Shown here one piece after another: positions 10,161 through 44,380 of a stretch of DNA of 64,000 nt. The DNA comes from an uncultured delta proteobacterium (GTDB lineage: Bacteria > Desulfobacterota > BSN033 > UBA1163), in assembly GCA_963708295.1 (NCBI GenBank), contig CAVPSJ010000012.1:1-64000 (forward strand), read 5' to 3'. Every line of letters begins with the position of its first letter. The stretch's first letter is position 1. Below the pieces are notes generated by a model. It was not told the DNA's origin, ran no database searches, and saw only the letters and a program-made list of their open reading frames with translations. A program made the position numbers and the translations under genes.

Positions 10161-10970
10161 ATGGCCGTTACCAAAGAGGTTCAACTTCAGGTCAATGACA
10201 TTTATATGGCTTTCGGAGGCGTCCAAGCCTTGATGGGTGTGAGTTTGGAGGTGAAAAAAGGCGAGATCTTTTCCATCATCGGTCCAAATGGCGCCGGCAA
10301 AACGGTTCTCTTGAACTGCATCAATGGCCTCTATCACCCTCAAAGAGGAAACATCGAATTCGAAGGAAAAGATATCACCCGATCCAGGCCCTATCAGAGG
10401 GCAAAGTTGGGAATCTCAAGAACATTCCAAAAACTTGAGCTCTTTAAAGGCGCAACCGTGCTCGATAACATCCGCCTCGGTCGCCATATTCATCTCAAAT
10501 CAGGGTTGATCAGCGGGGCCATCTACTTCGGGAAGACTGCCCGTGAAGAGATTGAACACCGGGATTTTATTGAAAAGGAGATCATCGATCTCCTGGAAAT
10601 TGAACATATCCGGGATAAGATGGTGGGAATGCTTCCCTATGGACTTCAAAAGCGAGTCGAATTGGCAAGGGCATTGGCGCTCAACCCTAAAATCATTCTG
10701 CTGGATGAACCTCTTGCCGGTCTGAATTTAGAAGAAGTCGAGGACATGGCTCGGTTTATTTTAGATATTAACGAAGAGGAACGGTGGCAGACGACTTGTG
10801 TTTTGGTTGAACACGACATGGGCGTGGTCATGGATATTTCCCATCGGGTGATGGCCCTTAACTTTGGTAAGAAAATCGCAGACGGAACTCCACCCGAAGT
10901 TCAGCGCGATCCCCAGGTGATCAAGGCTTATTTGGGTGAGGCGGAGGATCTCTATGTCACGCGCCGGTAG
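10161..10970 (+). CDS. livG: LIV-family ABC transporter ATP-binding protein (LivG-like)
   Basis: GPNGAGKT, LPYGLQKRVELARAL, LLDEP, EHDM, VIKAYLG. Confidence 0.93.
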   Translation: MAVTKEVQLQVNDIYMAFGGVQALMGVSLEVKKGEIFSIIGPNGAGKTVLLNCINGLYHPQRGNIEFEGKDITRSRPYQRAKLGISRTFQKLELFKGATVLDNIRLGRHIHLKSGLISGAIYFGKTAREEIEHRDFIEKEIIDLLEIEHIRDKMVGMLPYGLQKRVELARALALNPKIILLDEPLAGLNLEEVEDMARFILDINEEERWQTTCVLVEHDMGVVMDISHRVMALNFGKKIADGTPPEVQRDPQVIKAYLGEAEDLYVTRR

Positions 10971-12888
10971 TTCGAAAGAAATTGAGATAACCAAGGATTT
11001 GACCATTCCCAAACTCTTTTTACAGGCCGCTAAAAAATATTGGGACAAAAAGGTGGCCATGCGGGAGAAGGAATTCGGAATCTGGGTCCCCATCACTTGG
11101 AAACAGTATTATGAGAATGTGAAGCACATTGCGCTAGGAATGGTTTCGCTGGGGTTAGAGAGGGAAGACAAAGTCGCCATGATCGGCGACAACCGACCCG
11201 AGGCCCTTTGGGCAGAAATGGCCGCCATGTGTGTGGGGGGTGTAGGAGTCTGGTTGTTTCAGGACTCTCTGATTGATGAGGTGAAATATATTATCGACCA
11301 CTCCGATGCCAAACTGATGGTGGGCGAAGGGCAAGAAGAGGTTGATAAATGCCTCATGATCAAAGACAAATGCCCGAAGTTGAAGAAGATGATCTGGGAT
11401 GACCCCAAGGGAATGAGAGAATATGACGACCCCATCCTCATCAGCGTTAAAAAACTGATGGAAATTGGCGAGGAGATGGACAAGAAAGAGCCCGGCCTCT
11501 TCGAAGATATCATCAAGAAAGGAAAAGGAGATGATGTCTGTCTCCTCTTCTATACCTCGGGAACCACTGCCCTTCCGAAAGGAGCTCTCCTCACCCATTA
11601 TAATATGTTGACCATGGGACAAAATTTAATGCGTGTGGACCCCTATTTTGAATCGGATGACTTCGTCTCCTACCTCCCCTTTGCCTGGATTGGAGAGCAG
11701 ATGATGTCGATCTCCTGCGGAATTCAGGCCGGATTTACGCTCAATTTTCCGGAAGAGCCCGAGACGGCGCAAGAAAATATCCGTGAGATCGGCCCTCATG
11801 TGATGTTCGCACCTCCTCGTGTTTATGAACAGATGGTGCGGAATGTCCAGGTCAAATATCTGGATGCAACGTGGTCCAAGCGGAAAGCCTATGAGTGGGC
11901 CATGAGGATAGGCTACCATGTGGCTGAATTGAAGTTTATGAAAAAGCCCATTCCCTGGTATTGGAAAGCGCTCGACTCTCTTGCTTACCTGGGTGTCCAT
12001 AAAAAATTGAAAGACCATTTAGGCCTTTCCAGGATACGGGATACCTATACCGGAGGAGCGGCCATGGGCCCAGACCATTTCCGATTCTTCCATGCCATTG
12101 GAGTGAATCTGAAACAGATCTACGGCCAGACCGAGATTGCCGGAATTTCTGTTCTTCATCGGGATGACGATATCAAATTTGATACCGTCGGGAGGCCTAT
12201 CCCGGAAACCGAGGTAAAAATTACTCCGGAGGGAGAGATCATTTCAAAAAGCCCCTCCGTTTTTATAGGTTATTATAAGATGCCGGAAGAGACGACCAAA
12301 GCGTTAAAGGATGGGTGGCTCCACTCAGGAGATACCGGTTTCATCGATCCCGATGGCCACCTGGTCGTATTCGACCGAACGAAAGATGTGATGACCCTGA
12401 GCGACGGAACCAAGTTCGCTCCCCAGTTTTTGGAAACACGTCTTAAATTCAGTCCCTATATTAAAGATGTCTGGGCCATCGGTGACAACAGGCCTTATGT
12501 CACCACTGTGGTTTGTATCGATTATAGCGTGGTCGGCAATTGGGCAGAGGCCCGAAATATTGCCTACACCAGTTATTCTGAACTTTCTCAAATGCCGGGC
12601 GTCTACGAACTGATTCAGAAGGAAGTCATCAAGATGAATCACGACCTCCCCCCGATTGCCCGGATTAAGAAATTTATCAACCTCTACAAGGAATTCGATG
12701 CGGATGATGATGAATTGACCCGGACCCGAAAATTGCGAAGGGCCTTTGTCGAAGAACGATATAAAGATATTGTCAACGGTCTTTATTCCGATACCCATAC
12801 GGTCCATATGGACACCAATATCACGTATGAAGATGGAAGGGTGACTCATATTAAAACGGATCTTAAAGTGATGGAGGTACCGCAATAA
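10954..12888 (+). CDS. Long-chain acyl-CoA synthetase (AMP-binding) embedded in the LIV-type operon
   Basis: YTSGTTALPKG, YGQTE, GWLHSGD, ELTRTRKLRR. Confidence 0.92.
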   Translation: MSRAGSSKEIEITKDLTIPKLFLQAAKKYWDKKVAMREKEFGIWVPITWKQYYENVKHIALGMVSLGLEREDKVAMIGDNRPEALWAEMAAMCVGGVGVWLFQDSLIDEVKYIIDHSDAKLMVGEGQEEVDKCLMIKDKCPKLKKMIWDDPKGMREYDDPILISVKKLMEIGEEMDKKEPGLFEDIIKKGKGDDVCLLFYTSGTTALPKGALLTHYNMLTMGQNLMRVDPYFESDDFVSYLPFAWIGEQMMSISCGIQAGFTLNFPEEPETAQENIREIGPHVMFAPPRVYEQMVRNVQVKYLDATWSKRKAYEWAMRIGYHVAELKFMKKPIPWYWKALDSLAYLGVHKKLKDHLGLSRIRDTYTGGAAMGPDHFRFFHAIGVNLKQIYGQTEIAGISVLHRDDDIKFDTVGRPIPETEVKITPEGEIISKSPSVFIGYYKMPEETTKALKDGWLHSGDTGFIDPDGHLVVFDRTKDVMTLSDGTKFAPQFLETRLKFSPYIKDVWAIGDNRPYVTTVVCIDYSVVGNWAEARNIAYTSYSELSQMPGVYELIQKEVIKMNHDLPPIARIKKFINLYKEFDADDDELTRTRKLRRAFVEERYKDIVNGLYSDTHTVHMDTNITYEDGRVTHIKTDLKVMEVPQ

Positions 12889-13385
12889 AAATCAGTGCAA
12901 AATTAACATTGCAAAGTTAACAATTAGCAATGAAATATGGAAAACCTATTACAAAATCAACACTGCAAAATTAGCACTTAGCAATGAGCGCTAAAACTAA
13001 TCAATTGTCAGATCGATTACTCGATTTTGCTGTAGAAGTGATCAAAATTACGGATGCGTTACCGAATACGGTTGCAGGAAGGCACGTCGGCGGTCAGCTG
13101 ATAAGAGCAGGGACATCTTGCGGCTCAAATTATGAAGAAGCTTGTGGTGCCGAATCCAGATCTGACTTTTCCCATAAGATGAGTATTGTGCTCAAAGAAC
13201 TAAAGGAATCACGGTTCTGGCTAAGGTTAATTTCCAGAACTGAAATGCTTACCAATAATCGCACTGAGCGCGTCCTAGATGAATGCCAACAACTGTGTGC
13301 CATTGTTGCGAAAAGTATTCTTACGGCAAAGCGGAGGAGAACTTCAAATTGATAACTTTGCAATGGTAATTTTGCAATTTGCATT
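12889..13385. mobile_element. Four-helix-bundle gene cassette bounded by inverted 7-nt repeat arrays (family A: AnTGCAA/AnTTARC)
   Basis: Left arm AGTGCAA AATTAAC ATTGCAA AGTTAAC (12894-12921) matches the reverse complement of 13351-13378 at 25/28. Mobility is inferred. Confidence 0.6.
12984..13352 (+). CDS. Four helix bundle protein (TIGR02436 / 23S rRNA IVP-like family)
   Basis: QLIRAGTSCGSNYEEA...ESRSDFSHKMSIVLKELKESRFWL signature. Confidence 0.9.
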   Translation: MSAKTNQLSDRLLDFAVEVIKITDALPNTVAGRHVGGQLIRAGTSCGSNYEEACGAESRSDFSHKMSIVLKELKESRFWLRLISRTEMLTNNRTERVLDECQQLCAIVAKSILTAKRRRTSN

Positions 13386-13408
13386 TATATTTTGAAGGGG
13401 AGGCTTTC

Positions 13409-14293
13409 ATGGAACTTTTTTTACAACTTTTTATCACGGGAATTCTCGTCGGGAGCATCTATGCCCTGGTGGCATTAGGGTGGACCCTCATCTATAAATG
13501 CTCTGGCGTCCTCAACCTGGCCATGGGTGAACTGACCTTGATGGGGGCATATGTCTGTCTGACCTTGTACCAATGGCATATCCCATTCATATTAGCCCTC
13601 CTCATCACTCTTGTCATCGGGTTTGCCTTGGGGATCTTAACCGAAATTCTCTTCTTGAGGCCCATGGTAGGAGAACCGGTATTGAGCGTCATCATGGTCA
13701 CCGTGGGGCTCTCTTTTTTCTTCAAAGGGTTGGTGGAGTTGGTCTGGGGGACGGATACCGTTATTTTCGCTCCTCCGGTATTTGCAATCGAACCCATATT
13801 CATAGGAAAAATTGTCGTCGGTCAGGTTTACCTCTGGGCTTTCGTTGCGTCGATCATCCTTCTTCTCGCCTTTGTCACTTTCTTCAAATATACAAAGTGG
13901 GGGTTATCCATGCAGGCAACGGCGGATGACGAGATGGCCGCTCTATCTCTTGGTGTGAACGCTAAGATTGTTTATGCCCTTGCCTGGGCCATTGCCTTTA
14001 TGGCGGCAGGAGTCGGCGGAACTTTATTGGGAAACATCAATGGTCTTAATATTTCTGTGGGCCACCTGGGTTTATTAGTTCTCCCCGCCGTCGTTTTGGG
14101 CGGTCTTAACTCCGTCCCCGGGGCCATCGTGGGGGGTCTGGTGATTGGAGTTCTTCAGAATTTGGCAGACGGCTATTTAAGTCGTTTTACGCCCGGTGGG
14201 GTGAAAGAGGTTTTCCCCTTCGCGGTGATGGTCGTCGTCTTGTTGTTCAAGCCCTACGGACTCTGGGGTTGGATACGAATTGAACGCGTCTAA
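13409..14293 (+). CDS. livH: LIV-family ABC permease (LivH-like)
   Basis: GSIYALVALG, VLNLAMG, VLGGLNS, KPYGLWG. Confidence 0.92.
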   Translation: MELFLQLFITGILVGSIYALVALGWTLIYKCSGVLNLAMGELTLMGAYVCLTLYQWHIPFILALLITLVIGFALGILTEILFLRPMVGEPVLSVIMVTVGLSFFFKGLVELVWGTDTVIFAPPVFAIEPIFIGKIVVGQVYLWAFVASIILLLAFVTFFKYTKWGLSMQATADDEMAALSLGVNAKIVYALAWAIAFMAAGVGGTLLGNINGLNISVGHLGLLVLPAVVLGGLNSVPGAIVGGLVIGVLQNLADGYLSRFTPGGVKEVFPFAVMVVVLLFKPYGLWGWIRIERV

Positions 14294-14386
14294 AAAATCA
14301 TTGCAAATTGAAAAGTTAGCAATGCAAATTTATCAGTGAAGAAAAACGTTATCTAATTTAACAATGCTAATTTTGCATTTTGCATT
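14294..14386. repeat. Empty family-A inverted heptamer cassette
   Basis: AAAATC ATTGCAA ATTGAAA AGTTAGC AATGCAA ... GCTAATT TTGCATT TTGCATT, running from the stop codon to the RBS. Confidence 0.8.
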
Positions 14387-14397
14387 GGGAGGTTAAG

Positions 14398-17749: not shown

Positions 17750-17831
17750 AACAACAATTCAAAATGTAAAATTAACAATAGTCAATTAGCATTGCTAATT
17801 TTGCACTGATCATTTTGCACTTTGCATTGAT
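17750..17831. repeat. Empty family-A inverted heptamer cassette
   Basis: AATGTAA AATTAAC ... AATTAGC / GCTAATT TTGCACT ... TTGCACT TTGCATT. Confidence 0.75.
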
Positions 17832-22345: not shown

Positions 22346-22454
22346 AAAATCAATGCAAATTGCAAAGTTAGCAGTGCAAAGTTAGCATTGAAAAAACCGC
22401 TATCTTTCATTGTTAATTGCTAATTTTACAATGCTAATTTTGCAATGAGTTTTT
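22346..22454. repeat. Empty family-A inverted heptamer cassette
   Basis: AAAATC AATGCAA ATTGCAA AGTTAGC AGTGCAA AGTTAGC ... GCTAATT TTACAAT GCTAATT TTGCAAT GAGTTTT. Confidence 0.85.
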
Positions 22455-28302: not shown

Positions 28303-28411
28303 ATGGAGTGTTGGAGTGATGGAGTAATGGAATGATGGAGCAACATAAAGACAAATGAAACGATAAAAAATTAAGCCCAACACTCCAGTACTCCAATACT
28401 CCATGACTCCA
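28303..28411. repeat. Inverted octamer cassette, family C (TGGAGTRW / WYACTCCA)
   Basis: TGGAGTGT TGGAGTGA TGGAGTAA TGGAATGA ... CCAACAC TCCAGTAC TCCAATAC TCCATGAC TCCA. Confidence 0.85.
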
Positions 28412-28428
28412 AGAAATTTGATTGAATC

Positions 28429-34101: not shown

Positions 34102-34171
34102 TTGGAATATTGGAGTACTGGAGTAATGGAGTGTTGGGTTAACCCATCATTCCAATACTCCATTACTCCAT
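34102..34171. repeat. Inverted octamer cassette, family C, near loop-less hairpin
   Basis: TGGAATAT TGGAGTAC TGGAGTAA TGGAGTGT TGGGTT|AACCCA TCATTCCA ATACTCCA TTACTCCA. Confidence 0.88.
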
Positions 34172-34204
34172 TGGATGGATGATAGCACTGAGGAAGAATA
34201 ACGG

Positions 34205-36436
34205 ATGGAAAAATTGGAAGAGGTGGTCCCTGAAGCTTTAGTGATCGGCGCAGGCATTGCCGGGATGCAGACGGCCCTGGACATCGCCGACAAGGGGTTT
34301 AGAGTCCACTTGGTGGAGAAGGAAACTTGCATCGGGGGCCACATGGCCCAACTGGATAAAACCTTCCCGACCCTGGATTGTTCTGCCTGCATCAGCACGC
34401 CGAAGATGGTCGATACGGCGAATCATCCCAACATTGACCTTCTGACCTACTCCGAGATCGTTGGGGTTGAGGGAAAGCCCGGGCATTTCAAGGTAACGGT
34501 CAGGAAGAAACCTCGTTTTGTCGATGTGGCCAAATGCACGGGCTGCGGCGACTGTGCAGCCCAGTGCCCCGTCACCCTCCTCAATGAATTCGATATGGGA
34601 TTAGGGAAAAGGAAAGCCATTTACATCTCTTTCCCCCAGGCTGTTCCGCTCAAATATACGATGGACCGCCGGGGAACCTCCCCTTGCACGACCACCTGTC
34701 CCCTCCACTGCAATGCCCAGGGCTATGTGGCTCTCATCTCCCAGGGCAAGTTTAAGGAAGCCCTTCAACTGGTGCGCGAAAGGCTCCCCTTTCCCGGAAT
34801 TTTGGCCTATGCCTGTGCTCACCCCTGCGAGAGGGAGTGCAAGCGAATCGAGACGGATCATCCCGTCTCGATTTGCCGTCTTAAGAGATTCCTTGTCGAT
34901 CACGTAGAAGAACCCGAGTTTGAATTTACGATTCCCGAAGAGAAAGAGAAAAAGATTGCGATCGTGGGCGGAGGGCCCTCGGGACTCACCGCCGCATACG
35001 ACCTGAGAAGAATGGGCTACCGCGTTACTCTTTTTGAGTCCAAGAACGAGCTGGGCGGTCTCCTCACCCACGGTTTCCCCTCCTATCGTCTTCCGAGGAA
35101 GGTCGTGGAAAGGGATCTCGCGGTCATCGATAAAATGGGAATAGAGGTGAAGTGCAACACCCGGGTGGGAAAAGACGTCTCCCCGGAGACGCTCCGGCAA
35201 TCTTATGACGCGATCTTTATCGCGGGTGGCATCACCGGAGCAGAATCGATCCTGAACACTTTCAAAGGCCTGAAGAGGACAAGAAGAGGAACGATTCAGG
35301 TCCATCCCATTTCCCTGGAAACGGACGTCGAGGGAATCTTCGCGGGCGGGGATATGGTGACCGGTCCCGGGACCATAATCGAATCGATGGCCCATGGAAG
35401 AAAGGCAGCCCTGTCGATCGATCGATACCTTCGCGGGGAAGACCTGCTTCAAGGAAGGGAATCCGAGGGGACACAAATCTCCCCTTTGAGAAGCCTTCTC
35501 CCTTATTCAAAGAGGATGGACCGAGAAGTTCTGCCCGACATGGTGAAACCCCTCGTCGCCAGCCTCACCGCGGAAGAGGCGATGGAGGAGGCAAGGCGTT
35601 GTCTCAATTGTGCAGGGTGCTCGGATTGCGGAGAATGTGCCAAGGCCTGTCAACCCAAGGCCGTCAACTACGGGATGAAAGAAGAGATCGTTGAATTTCA
35701 CGTGGGATCCATCGTCCTCGCCACCGGGTTCGATCCTTTTAATCCGAAGCTGAAACCCGAATTCGGCTACGGAATCTATCCCAATGTCCTCCATGGTCTT
35801 GAAATCGAGCGTCTCTGTTCCGCCTCCGGTCCAACCAAAGGTGAGATTATCATCCAGGGGATGAAACCCAAAGAGGTGGTTTTTATTCATTGCGTCGGGT
35901 CGAGGGATAAATCGGCCGGCAACGAATACTGTTCGAGAGTGTGCTGCATGTATACGGCGAAGCAAGCCCATCTCCTCAGGGATAAGATTCCCGATGCGAA
36001 AATCACCGTCCTCTACATGGATGTGAGGGCCTTTGGAAAAGGATTTGAGGAATTCTACGAGCGGGTCCAAAAAGAGAGGATCGTTTACCGAAGAGGAAAT
36101 CCCTCCGAGGTCTATCGAAGAAACGGAAAACTGGTCGTCCGGGCTGAGGACACTCTCTTGGGGGAGCCTTTTGAATTAGAAGCGGACCTGGTCGTCTTGG
36201 CCTCCGGGCTCGTCCCCCGAAGGGAAGAAGATCTTATGAAGAACATGCTGGGACTGGAGAACTCTGCTGACAAGTTCTATGCAGAGGCGCCTGGCCTCGA
36301 TCCGATCATGACCAAAAAGGAAGGGATCTTTCTCGCGGGATGCTGCCAGGGCCCTAAAGACATCCCGGATACCGTGGCCCAGGCGAGTGGTGCAGCTTCT
36401 TTGGCCTGCGCGATTTTAGCCAGAGGGAAAAAATAA
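34205..36436 (+). CDS. hdrA: HdrA-like (HdrL-type) flavoprotein with a GltD-like insertion; lacks the N-terminal HdrA domain and the C-terminal ferredoxin
   Basis: IGAGIAG, LDKTFPTLDCSAC, CVGSRD..YCSRVCC, GPKDIP. Insertion SPCTTTCP...GGGPSG. Confidence 0.88.
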   Translation: MEKLEEVVPEALVIGAGIAGMQTALDIADKGFRVHLVEKETCIGGHMAQLDKTFPTLDCSACISTPKMVDTANHPNIDLLTYSEIVGVEGKPGHFKVTVRKKPRFVDVAKCTGCGDCAAQCPVTLLNEFDMGLGKRKAIYISFPQAVPLKYTMDRRGTSPCTTTCPLHCNAQGYVALISQGKFKEALQLVRERLPFPGILAYACAHPCERECKRIETDHPVSICRLKRFLVDHVEEPEFEFTIPEEKEKKIAIVGGGPSGLTAAYDLRRMGYRVTLFESKNELGGLLTHGFPSYRLPRKVVERDLAVIDKMGIEVKCNTRVGKDVSPETLRQSYDAIFIAGGITGAESILNTFKGLKRTRRGTIQVHPISLETDVEGIFAGGDMVTGPGTIIESMAHGRKAALSIDRYLRGEDLLQGRESEGTQISPLRSLLPYSKRMDREVLPDMVKPLVASLTAEEAMEEARRCLNCAGCSDCGECAKACQPKAVNYGMKEEIVEFHVGSIVLATGFDPFNPKLKPEFGYGIYPNVLHGLEIERLCSASGPTKGEIIIQGMKPKEVVFIHCVGSRDKSAGNEYCSRVCCMYTAKQAHLLRDKIPDAKITVLYMDVRAFGKGFEEFYERVQKERIVYRRGNPSEVYRRNGKLVVRAEDTLLGEPFELEADLVVLASGLVPRREEDLMKNMLGLENSADKFYAEAPGLDPIMTKKEGIFLAGCCQGPKDIPDTVAQASGAASLACAILARGKK

Positions 36437-36530
36437 ATGGAGGAATGGAGTAACGGAGTACTGGGTGACAAAACCTGTTCATCTTCAATTCCTTTCAAAA
36501 CCCGTCACTCCAATACTCCATCACTCCGGT
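36437..36530. repeat. Inverted octamer cassette, family C
   Basis: ATGGAGGA ATGGAGTA ACGGAGTA CTGGG ... CCCG TCACTCCA ATACTCCA TCACTCC. Confidence 0.82.
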
Positions 36531-36547
36531 AATCCAGTATTGGTGGT

Positions 36548-39228: not shown

Positions 39229-40902
39229 ATGCTCAAAGAGGACAAGCTGAAAGACATCGAGCAGGAAAAGAAAAGGTGGCTGCAGGATCTGGCAGAAATC
39301 CTCCGAGAGACCCCTGAACGCCTCCCGCGATTTAGCACGATCTCTGATCTTGAGATCAAAAACCTTTACACTCCGGAAGACCTGAAAGAAATTGACTATA
39401 TCAGTGACATCGGCTTTCCGGGCGTCTATCCTTTCACACGGGGGGTTCAGCCCTCCATGTATCGAGGAAGGCTCTGGACCATGCGAATGTTTTCAGGATT
39501 AGGTGGCCCGGAGGAAACGAATAGCCGCTTCCGCTATCTCCTGTCTCAGGGAGAAACGGGCCTTTCCGTCGCCTTCCACTATCCGACGCTGATGGGATAT
39601 GACAGCGATTCCCCGATGTCAAAGGGGGAGATCGGGAAGTGTGGCGTGGCTGTCGACACATTAAAGGACATGGAGATTCTCTTTGAAGGAATTCCCTTGG
39701 GCAAAGTGACCACTTCCATGACGATCAATCCGCCTGCTTCAATCTTGCTGGCGATGTACATTGTCGTGGCGGAGAAACAGGGTGTGAGCAGAAGGGAAAT
39801 CGGAGGGACCATTCAAAATGACATGCTGAAGGAATTTATCGCCCAGAAAACCTTCATGCTGCCGCCGAAGCCATCCATCCGAATCATTGTCGATACCATT
39901 GAATTTTGCACCCGGGAAGTCCCCCGTTGGAACACGATCAGCATCAGCGGCTATCATATCCGTGAGGCCGGCGCCACCGCCGTTCAGGAACTCGCCTTCA
40001 CTCTGGCCGATGGGATTGCCTATGTCGCGGCCGCCTTGGAGAGAGGTTTGGAGGTGGATGATTTTGCCCCGCGGCTCTCTTTTTTCTTCGATTCTCATAT
40101 TGATTTCTTTGAAGAGATCGCCAAGTTCAGGGCCGCTCGAAGAATGTGGTCGAAGATCATGCGCGAGCGTTTCATGGCGAAGAACCCCCGTTCCTGGATG
40201 CTTCGCTTCCACACCCAAACGGCGGGCTGTTCCTTGACGGCGCAGCAGCCTTTTAACAACGTCGTCCGCACCGCCTCCGAGGCGATGGCAGCCGTCCTGG
40301 GGGGAACCCAGTCTCTTCACACCAATTCACTCGACGAAACCTATGCGATCCCCACCGAGGAAGCGGTCACGATCGCATTGCGGACACAACAGATCCTCGC
40401 AGAAGAAACCGGCGTGGCCAATACGATTGATCCTATGGCGGGGTCCTATTTTGTCGAAACCCTCACTTCCCAGATGGAGCAACAGGCCTGGGAATATATC
40501 CGTCGGATTGATGAAATGGGAGGAATGGTCACAGCGGTTGAGCGAGGTTTTCCCCAGGCAGAAATCGCCGATTCAGCCTATAAGTTTCAGAAACAGATTG
40601 ACTCCGGCGAAAAGGTCATGGTGGGTGTCAATAAACATGCGACAGACCATCCCCCCATCACGATTTGGAGAATGGATCCTGCGGTTGAAGAAAGACAGCT
40701 GGCAAGGCTCCGTCGGGTGAAACGGGATCGGGACAATCAAAAAGTGAAAGGACTCCTCCATCAGATTCTGACTGCTTCCAAGAATGGTGAAAATCTCATG
40801 CCCCATATCATCAACGCTGTCAGGGAATATGCCACGATTCAAGAAATCTGTGACGTGTGGCGGGATGTCTTTGGGAGATACACAGACCCGGGATATTTTT
40901 AA
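39229..40902 (+). CDS. icmA: B12-dependent acyl-CoA mutase large subunit, isobutyryl-CoA-mutase-like (IcmA)
   Basis: WTMRMFSG (Phe at the MCM Tyr89 position), KEFIAQK (Gln at the MCM Arg207 position), [20 protein letters not shown]. Confidence 0.8.
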
Positions 40903-40995
40903 TTCGGAATGCAGAGTGCGGATTGCGGAATAAAACTCTTGAAATCTTAAATTTGAAGTTTTTGGTTTACCTTCCGAATTCCGCACCCCGAATTC
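40903..40995. repeat. Inverted heptamer cassette, family E (GAATGCG/GATTGCG ... TTCCGCA)
   Basis: GGAATGC AGAGTGC GGATTGC GGAAT ... TTCCGAA TTCCGCA CCCCGAA TT. The same left arm recurs at 41432-41460. Confidence 0.75.
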
Positions 40996-41431: not shown

Positions 41432-41660
41432 CGAATGCAGAATGCGGATTGCGGAATAAAATCATTCAAATAATAGATTCCCTCCGTCCGTGCCCTCGCC
41501 CATCACGAGGAGTATGGGCTCGGCAACGGGAATCTAAAATCCAAAGGAAGGAGGAAAGGGTAAGGACTTTAAGGCTAAGAGGCGAGAAATAATGGCAATT
41601 TCTTGATGCGATGCGCTAGGCCCTTTGCCTCCCGGCAGGCAGGCGCTATGCCTATCTCGG
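41432..41660. repeat. Composite repeat region (family-E arm, TAGATTCCC..GGGAATCTA hairpin, GCGCTA/GGCAGGCAGG remnants)
   Basis: GAATGCAGAATGCGGATTGCGGAATAAAA; TAGATTCCC (41474) / GGGAATCTA (41528); GCGATGCGCTAGG..CCGGCAGGCAGGCGCTATGC. Confidence 0.55.
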
Positions 41661-43880: not shown

Positions 43881-44380
43881 AAACGCGACGCGGAGACTCG
43901 GAGACACGGAGAGGCCGAAATGCCTGATATCAGATCGTTCAGAGAACTTAAAGTCTGGAAAAAGGCAATGGATCTTGCTATGGAGATATTTGAAACAACC
44001 AAGGGATTTCCAATGGAAGAAAGATATTCTCTGACTGATCAAATTCGACGTTCTTCGCGGTCCGTTCCGACAAATATTGCGGAAGCATGGCGCAAGCGGC
44101 GATATCCGGCTGCCTTTGTTAGTAAGCTGAATGATGCCGAAGGCGAATCGGCAGAAACTCAGACTCATCTGGAGATGGCAAAACGTTGTGGCTATATTGA
44201 TTCGACATCAGCCTCTCGTCTTGATAATTCGTATGAAGAAATCATGGCCATGCTTGTTTCTATGGTCGCACGGCCTCAACAATGGGCCATCCGGCCATCT
44301 AACAACCCGAAATTTTCAAAATAAGGTGTGAGAAATTCTCCACATCTCCGTGTCTCCGCGTCTCTATGTCTCCGTGTCTG
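43881..44380. mobile_element. Four-helix-bundle gene cassette bounded by inverted 8-nt repeat arrays (family F: GACACGGA / TCCGTGTC)
   Basis: Left GACGCGGA GACTCGGA GACACGGA GA (43887-912); right TCTCCACA TCTCCGTG TCTCCGCG TCTCTATG TCTCCGTG TC (44337-378). Mobility is inferred. Confidence 0.6.
43920..44324 (+). CDS. Four helix bundle protein (23S rRNA IVP/S23-like)
   Basis: FRELKVWKKAM..FPMEERYSLTDQIRRSSRSVPTNIAE..F..L..A.G...ET. Confidence 0.92.
   Translation: MPDIRSFRELKVWKKAMDLAMEIFETTKGFPMEERYSLTDQIRRSSRSVPTNIAEAWRKRRYPAAFVSKLNDAEGESAETQTHLEMAKRCGYIDSTSASRLDNSYEEIMAMLVSMVARPQQWAIRPSNNPKFSK

Follow-up and report, generated by a model that had tools for sequence, protein, structure and literature searches.

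The PF05635 proteins form a large family of unknown function, seen in ribosomal RNA intervening sequences and in cas and restriction operons, and related to Avd, the accessory protein of diversity-generating retroelements (DGRs). In the 23S rRNA intervening sequences (IVSs) of Coxiella burnetii (protein S23p), Leptospira and others, the open reading frame (ORF) for such a protein has terminal inverted repeats on both sides, for which a stem of about 30 bp is predicted, and lies in sense orientation in the host transcript, without a promoter of its own (PMC4990558). The same paper also reports that ribonuclease III (RNase III) cuts the 28-bp stem around the Coxiella S23p ORF mid-stem in vitro, and that IVS mobility has long been suspected, with a mechanism that is not known. 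In this study we analyse a cassette that has the protein, the enclosing repeats and the orientation in common with these elements and that lies in the liv operon of an uncultured delta proteobacterium, within a 64,000-nucleotide stretch (hereafter the window; contig C12:1-64000 of a 4.95-Mb, 20-contig genome, G000). Unlike the 23S rRNA IVS, the cassette sits in a protein-coding operon, outside any 23S rRNA helix, and its arms consist of tandem repeats of short period, of which many families exist, with gene-less copies dispersed in the genome. Excision by RNase III has been shown for the rRNA elements and is, by analogy, only a candidate process for the liv cassette.

The second system that resembles this locus is that of the repetitive extragenic palindromes (REPs) and the REP-associated tyrosine transposases (RAYTs). 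Nunvar et al. 2010 (PMC2817692) place the RAYT gene between two inverted repeats, describe co-evolution and find that presence of the gene correlates with the abundance of the cognate REP. Evidence along the same three lines was gathered for our cassette, firm for the flanking inverted repeats and for co-evolution and mixed for cognate abundance, and its dispersed gene-less units are hairpin-forming doublets, as are REPINs (PMC3116915). Unlike a RAYT, the cassette protein is a 120-aa helical bundle that has no HUH/Y1 (IS200/IS605-type) tyrosine transposase domain, and the arms are tandem heptamer-type arrays, not one palindrome.

Short-period (7-nt) tandem arrays between genes are also known as heptamer repeats, such as GGGAATC in Xanthomonas, the cyanobacterial short tandemly repeated repetitive (STRR) type and TAACTGA in Beggiatoaceae. 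Rehm et al. 2015 (PMC4692102) count 186 GGGAATC arrays in Xanthomonas, with 70-75 convergent pairs able to form stem-loops, and the TAACTGA repeats are treated by MacGregor 2015 (PMC4679880). Unlike these, the arrays of the cassette go with one particular family of genes, and a single genome contains many families of them. The terms 'four-helix' and 'intervening' were not found in the consulted portions of either paper. As regards the protein family, Zhang et al. 2014 (PMC3936711) list 18 genes inside cas loci, one of them between cmr3 and cmr2, and rRNA insertions in the candidate phyla radiation (CPR) are the subject of a preprint. Our literature search, with supplements outside its reach, returned no publication linking the four-helix-bundle family to flanking short-period or heptamer arrays.

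We conclude that the locus is best explained by a promoter-less cassette that is inherited and moved as gene plus arms, with gene-less hairpin derivatives, and we put the probability of this explanation at roughly three in four. Every protein clade retains an arm family of its own, close relatives differ in whether they have the insertion, and ORF-less hairpins with the same arms occur at the same site and elsewhere. We class the cassette as an IVS-type element outside rRNA that shows REP/RAYT-like population behaviour.

The ORF encodes 122 amino acids and is placed between genes for an acyl-CoA ligase and a livH-like permease, the co-directional gene order being livG-like ATPase, acyl-CoA ligase, ORF, livH-like and livM-like permeases, binding protein and livF-like ATPase. 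The original prediction, made from the sequence of this stretch, had read it as a TIGR02436-like gene interrupting the LIV operon, which the profile score confirms (88.3 bits, cut-off 24; 65.3 bits for PF05635, cut-off 33.8). The best NCBIfam match of the ligase gene is a FadD11-type ligase (E 5e-85), which remains under that model's cut-off. The two pairing arms measure 30 nt each, are 93% complementary and are spaced 421 nt apart, so that the 25/28 match given earlier was slightly conservative. They run from 8 nt past the ligase stop to about 8-18 nt ahead of the livH ribosome site (Table 1), in agreement with the predicted limits, from the upstream stop codon to just before the next ribosome-binding site.

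The inverted arrays were also predicted correctly, while their proposed 7-nt period was not upheld. Tandem Repeats Finder (TRF) reports a period of 14 (1.9 copies at 12896-12922) and 7-nt self-similarity is merely 0.48; the repeat unit of the window array is therefore 14 nt long and combines two unlike alternating heptamers, which we call family A. In the window, 14 copies of its core 13-mer (at most 2 mismatches) were counted where 1.34 would be expected, a number reached by none of 100 shuffles. The left arm is duplicated over 47 nt (12887-12933 and 12941-12987), and the ORF's initiation codon consequently falls at the second copy's end; the duplication is common to the relatives L002 and L003 and missing from L015, L017 and L028. 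No Shine-Dalgarno-like run was seen upstream of the ORF, nor any promoter-like or terminator-like site from the ligase stop to the ORF, and the livH start codon is consistent with the alignment of orthologues. Positions 12889-13386 are best read as a cassette of roughly 500 bp that has no promoter and is inserted, in the sense direction, after the ligase stop and ahead of the livH ribosome site.

Table 1 Features of the cassette, its host genes and the gene-less family-A hairpins of the window.
Feature	Position	Strand	Remarks
AMP-forming acyl-CoA ligase gene, host gene upstream	10936-12888	+	stop codon 12886-12888
Left array, copy 1	12889-12933	+	family A; pairing arm 12896-12925; pairs with the right arm in the predicted minimum free energy (MFE) and centroid structures
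Left array, copy 2 (diverged)	12941-12987	+	79% identical to copy 1; extends into the ORF start codon
Four-helix-bundle gene	12984-13352	+	'23S rRNA intervening sequence protein' family; stop codon 13350-13352
Right array, reverse complement of the left	13347-13386	+	pairing arm 13347-13376, overlapping the ORF stop codon
livH-like permease gene, host gene downstream	13394-14293	+	purine-rich ribosome site 13394-13403; ATG 13409
Gene-less family-A hairpin, livH to livM	14296-14387	+	
Gene-less family-A hairpin after livF, end of the operon	17755-17829	+	
Gene-less family-A hairpin, 9 kb downstream	22350-22448	+	two period-14 arrays, 22361-22387 and 22418-22447

The ligase|livH junction was then read in 26 relatives (ligase orthologues at 76-91% identity were found in 25 relatives), and the gene proved not to be syntenically fixed. 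The junction is array-free in seven genomes (L018 to L025), where a gap of 14-37 nt holds the ribosome site only; L018 belongs to the same taxonomic family and the remaining six to different families of the class. The cassette with family-A arms is present in six genomes including that of the window, with proteins 76-87% identical to the window protein. L006 carries family-A arms and no ORF, and when the six cassettes are aligned with it, its hairpin is homologous to both arms as far as the position of the start codon. An apparent remainder of the first 13 nt of the ORF in this hairpin was rejected as evidence, being A-rich and too short. In L013 (genome G001) and L011 (G013) an insert lies between remnants of the family-A arms; its ORF, judged by eye, we take to be IS200/RAYT-like, that is, transposase-like. 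This insert is accompanied by GC-rich REP-like hairpins, and G013 retains 19 family-A motif hits. L016 shows a left family-A arm plus other repeats. Gene-less hairpins of three other families occupy the junction in eight genomes (GGGTCAAG-like in six, TGGAATA-type in one, GGTTAAG-type in one), and the GGTTAAG-type unit also flanks another four-helix-bundle gene of the window genome. The discrete unit that had been proposed is therefore visible as a polymorphism at one orthologous site.

On a tree of the ligase genes the cassette state is scattered. It is found in two unresolved deep branches, L003 and L017; in L001, sister to a clade with family-B hairpins; and in L015, nested in the family-B hairpin clade beside L007 (support 100/97). 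The cassette-bearing L002 and the arms-only L006 are sisters on branches of 0.03, and the simplest reading of L006 is therefore that the ORF was lost and the arms were kept. We also observed that the identity of livH to the window gene is bimodal, at 66-74% in L002, L006, L011, L013 and L028 versus 88-94% in the other liv loci, while the adjacent ligase is constant at 86-91%. This sequence pattern suggests that recombination may have a boundary at the hairpin junction, with two allele classes for the downstream half of the operon. In metagenome contigs of run X3 other arrays stand straight after the ligase stop, where the contigs come loose at 12887 and 12891, which hints weakly that this polymorphism also exists in nature. 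After livH in L020 the start of an insert resembled, by eye, a further four-helix-bundle gene; this candidate was discarded, as the profile matched nothing in the 345 nt available.

To compare arms and proteins, we collected 55 loci from this genome, G003, G004, G010 and G011 together with the liv orthologues, and compared all pairs of the 55 proteins. A pair was called non-orthologous if tblastx gave no match in either of the outer flanks, at a distance of 250-1300 nt. A common arm family (score at least 20) was present in 6/6 non-orthologous pairs with at least 75% protein identity and in 6/12 at 60-75%, compared to 0/19 at 50-60%, 0/34 at 40-50% and 3/958 below 40%. The nearest paralogue of the window gene elsewhere, L038 in G010, is 67% identical and has family-A arms. 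Between G000 C7:63605 and L060 in G004, whose proteins are 92-93% identical, the DNA is homologous from left arm to right arm, and the flanks are different and unalignable; among the 24 non-orthologous pairs that have at least 60% protein identity, the closest show homology that is likewise bounded by the arms. Between paralogues at 61-75% protein identity the sequence of the repeat unit is kept, beyond its complementarity. Gene and arms are thus passed on, disappear and turn up at unrelated loci together, as the idea of a mobile unit had anticipated, and we regard it as highly probable that the cassette is heritable and mobile.

We assessed how general this arrangement is with a flank-complement score, the best local alignment of the 200 nt upstream with the reverse complement of the 200 nt downstream, for which 4511 approximate genes of the same genome served as controls. 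The window locus scores 50, a value reached by 5/4511 controls, whose 99th percentile is 26. The 15 TIGR02436 matches of G000 form 13 loci, and nearly every one has a short-period array on its upstream side and the reverse complement of that array on its downstream side, the unit being different at each; 12/13 score at least 27 and 10/13 at least 33, while 38/4511 controls score at least 28. TRF finds 2341 arrays in G000, most commonly of period 7 (549). Merged arrays with an inverted partner within 1500 nt number 113, of which 80 have loops under 200 nt and are gene-less hairpins; where the loop is at least 250 nt, 14/29 rows enclose a four-helix-bundle gene (11 loci) and the others bracket ordinary genes or nothing.

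In the 55-locus set arms score at least 24 at 47 loci. The best period among 51 armed rows is 7 in 35, 6 in 7, 8 in 6, 9 in 2 and 11 in 1, with a median arm of 28 nt. Both neighbours are co-directional with the gene in 49/54 rows in which both were called, and the upstream neighbour is so in 57/59. For other phyla we chose 12 loci, for taxonomic spread, from 31 plasmid records found by tblastn (Bacteroidota, Chloroflexota, Spirochaetota, Bacillota, Cyanobacteriota): arms score at least 29 in 11/12, the best period is 7 in 12/12, and the contexts are co-directional pairs such as RND adaptor and permease, hsdS and hsdR, or helicase and methylase. The survey thus shows an association of four-helix-bundle genes with inverted short-period arrays, both within the genome and across phyla.

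Several further arrangements were recorded in the course of this survey. The window contains a second cassette at 43887-44379, with a TIGR02436 match at 43953-44270 (119.9 bits; the ORF spans about 43932-44336) inside inverted 8-nt arrays of a GGAGAC-type family. Four four-helix-bundle cassettes lie within 10 kb at G000 C15:197991-207330, and one of these (199377-199987) is split by an inserted ORF, by eye presumably GIY-YIG-like. Other small ORFs stand between inverted repeats at C14:41876-42259 (heptamer-type arrays) and at C16:131286-131675, C15:117408-117776 and C13:194861-195154 (GC-rich palindromes); judged by eye, we take three of the four to be DUF559-like and one GIY-YIG-like. Ordinary single genes inside inverted arrays are present at C13:223773-224722, C4:1029982-1030680, C8:145301-146707 and C1:111459-112601, including tpiA-like, rnhB-like and oxidoreductase-like ORFs.

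Since single-linkage of 1104 arrays chained 381 into one cluster, arm families were defined by direct comparisons instead. None of the 13 loci of G000 has an arm family in common with another, and each family has 0-45 further arrays elsewhere; some are nearly confined to their own gene, with 1 other array for GGACTGAG and 0 for the family of C4:255797. The family-A hairpins cluster near the gene: among roughly ten genomic places, three are in the liv operon and one is 9 kb downstream. The hairpin between livH and livM is conserved in L003, L004, L015 and L017, degenerate in L009 and reduced to a left arm in L016.

We next related array counts to the presence of the gene across 16 genomes belonging to the genus and family. 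For family A, the five genomes that carry an A-clade gene (at least 68% identity) have 18-41 motif hits and the 11 that lack one have 1-19 (one-sided Mann-Whitney U (MWU) test, p 0.0015), and for the GCGGAWT family three carrier genomes have 68-181 versus 14-63 in ten non-carriers (p 0.0035), p values that are descriptive and overstate the evidence, as these genomes are kin. The contrast is also seen between G007, with 41 family-A hits, and its ligase-tree sister G011, which has lost the ORF and has 1. The cognate-abundance link is clear in two of the three families tested and marginal in the third, unlike the REP/RAYT case also in that arrays are still present in genomes that lack the gene. 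The idea that the protein is matched to its own repeat family consequently has indirect support, from one family per locus, from the tracking of arms with protein and from cognate array counts; we propose only tentatively, from these sequence comparisons, that the protein may be specific for its own arrays.

Two further array families of the window were noted. Gene-less inverted 8-nt arrays of TGGAGTA/TGGAATA-type lie at 28303-28412, 34103-34172 and 36436-36536; this is the second largest cluster (64 arrays), with no such four-helix-bundle gene in this 91%-complete genome, and arms of this type flank the four-helix-bundle gene L056 of G003. AATGCGG-type arrays (40901-40931 and 41433-41457) flank the gene for the B12-binding subunit of a methylmalonyl-CoA mutase pair, and a cognate four-helix-bundle gene for this family was not found in G000 and is present in G003 and G004.

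An AlphaFold2 model of the window protein, built on an alignment of 19 relatives, predicts four helices with a pLDDT of 92.6. The nearest structures by Foldseek are BT_0352 (2RLD, TM 0.81-0.83) and Xcc0516 (2GSC, TM 0.78-0.83), followed by Avd of the DGRs (4DWL) and the 8UB7-type ribonucleoprotein entries of 2024 (TM 0.70-0.74), and a sequence-based structure search gives 2rld_A as sole match (E 1e-18). Residues R41, S45, N49 and E52 are spaced as in the family motif GxxRxxxSxxxNxxE, given in PMC3936711, with the leading G one residue off; S45 and N49 are invariant across 19 sequences. The protein has a pI of 9.3, and the median pI of its relatives is 9.1, above 8 in 48/55. PADLOC assigned no defence family. 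The predicted fold and the basic charge are thus like those of Avd, while sequence identity is about 15% and, unlike in a DGR, the neighbours of the ORF are ligase and livH, with no reverse transcriptase or template/variable repeat adjoining, in a search that was not made genome-wide.

In the mechanism that we propose, the arms would be functional termini that work as a hairpin, the basic, Avd-like protein would recognise its own repeat family, and a host activity would cut and join. The gene-less hairpins would then be derivatives that spread or persist best alongside the cognate gene, like REPs with RAYTs. The cassette would be co-transcribed with the operon, from which an mRNA stem of about 35-40 bp is expected, a plausible substrate of RNase III by analogy with the 23S rRNA elements. 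A wider claim seems to us doubtful at present, namely that PF05635 proteins are sequence-specific partners of short-period, mostly heptamer, hairpin repeats, each clade with its own family. On this view the gene would travel between two cognate arrays, and hairpins without a gene would multiply or persist solely as long as the protein is there.

The element could instead act purely at the RNA level, with arms whose role is to pair as a stem within the liv mRNA, from which RNase III would cut out the ORF loop, and with selection acting on RNA pairing. For the region 12880-13400 folding predicts an MFE of -138.9 kcal/mol (z -3.3, 0/100 shuffles as good), with the arms paired and the ORF looped out as had been foreseen, and the RNase III gene in the genome, the precedent of the 28-bp Coxiella stem (PMC4990558), the prevailing sense orientation and the missing promoter all fit. 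Duplex folding of the 200-nt flanks gives a cognate median of -84.7 versus -72.3 kcal/mol for non-cognate pairs (MWU p 2e-8), a blunt test in which 13/60 cognate pairs fall below the non-cognate 5th percentile. On the other hand, arm mismatches comprise 58 G-U and 61 A-C over 51 loci (31 versus 43 in 31 family representatives): G-U is no commoner than A-C, so that selection for sense-strand RNA pairing is not visible, which is unusual for a stem selected on one RNA strand. The conservation of the unit sequence beyond complementarity argues in the same direction, and none of the contigs assembled from two RNA runs spans the ORF. We would therefore look for the main constraint in the DNA or in recognition by the protein, as far as sequence can indicate. 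A purely RNA-level element is possible without being the probable case, and it can coexist with the cassette explanation; excision of the ORF loop from liv mRNA by RNase III, argued from analogy, is a somewhat less than even prospect.

Two further explanations dispense with gene and arms moving together. According to one, the hairpins came first as general intercistronic elements and the four-helix-bundle gene alone is mobile, landing in hairpin loops with the arms as its target. There is no shortage of such targets, with 80 gene-less hairpins in the genome and gene-less hairpins of four families at this very junction in relatives, and IVS elements are located at the tips of rRNA helices. Yet the homology at unrelated loci takes in the arms and ends at their outer edges, which argues against landing in unrelated pre-existing hairpins; the arm family follows protein identity; several families are almost exclusive to their own gene; and 13 different families are rare under random landing (P = 0.0015 when 13 of the 80 gene-less hairpins are drawn). 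We consider this improbable, and as a variant of it each protein may steer insertion into hairpins of its own family. According to the other, the ORF is an ordinary, vertically inherited liv accessory gene with a regulatory palindrome, not mobile, and the relatives differ by loss only. The cassettes in the deep branches of L003 and L017, which may be ancestral there, and the failure to find near-identical copies within one genome would suit this. It is opposed by the seven genomes with a traceless gap, by the same cassette type with the same arms at unrelated loci, by other repeat families at the same junction and by the presence of the gene family in unrelated operons across five phyla, and we judge it very improbable.

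Returning to the cassette explanation, a number of results weigh against it. Clear arms are missing at 8/55 loci, and single-family inverted arrays also bracket ordinary genes (the tpiA-like and rnhB-like ORFs), so that the arrays are not exclusive to four-helix-bundle genes. The rule of one gene per family is broken in G010, G003 and G004, each with two paralogues that have the same arm family, and with all TRF arrays as universe the all-different families of G000 have a P of 0.43. As for abundance, the GCGGAWT comparison gives p 0.11 if 55-57% homologues are counted as carriers, GARTTWA gives 24-94 versus 12-71 (p 0.058) with a loose pattern whose controls reach up to 30, and arrays of family A, GCGGAWT and GARTTWA all persist in gene-free genomes. 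Like an insertion sequence (IS) element or a MITE (miniature inverted-repeat transposable element) the cassette has inverted termini; no target-site duplication is visible at its junctions and it holds no transposase. The Pfam scan of the window protein returned PF05635 alone and no catalytic domain, and movement is therefore unexplained by anything the cassette encodes. The closest paralogues at different loci of one genome are 75-81% identical in protein, with no near-identical copies, which implies that any mobility is rare or old. Flanking homologous recombination could explain part of the scatter on the ligase tree, and the mismatch tally of the arms bears on the proposed mRNA stem here as well.

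The junction between ligase and livH offers a natural series at one place, in which the empty site can be compared with the cassette, with arms that lack the ORF and with repeats of other families, and this locus and its relatives show gene and arms passed on together as a matched pair. Two open questions thereby become testable at the bench, namely binding of the protein to its own arrays and cutting of the stem by RNase III, for which a single window supplies matched cognate and non-cognate pairs in this cassette and that at 43887-44379. If the wider claim on PF05635 proteins is true, the system would be REPIN/RAYT-like but would rest on a nucleic-acid-binding protein that resembles Avd and is not an enzyme. 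The intergenic tandem heptamer repeats of bacteria are as unexplained as the PF05635 family itself, and 23S rRNA intervening sequences and these repeats would then be one phenomenon.

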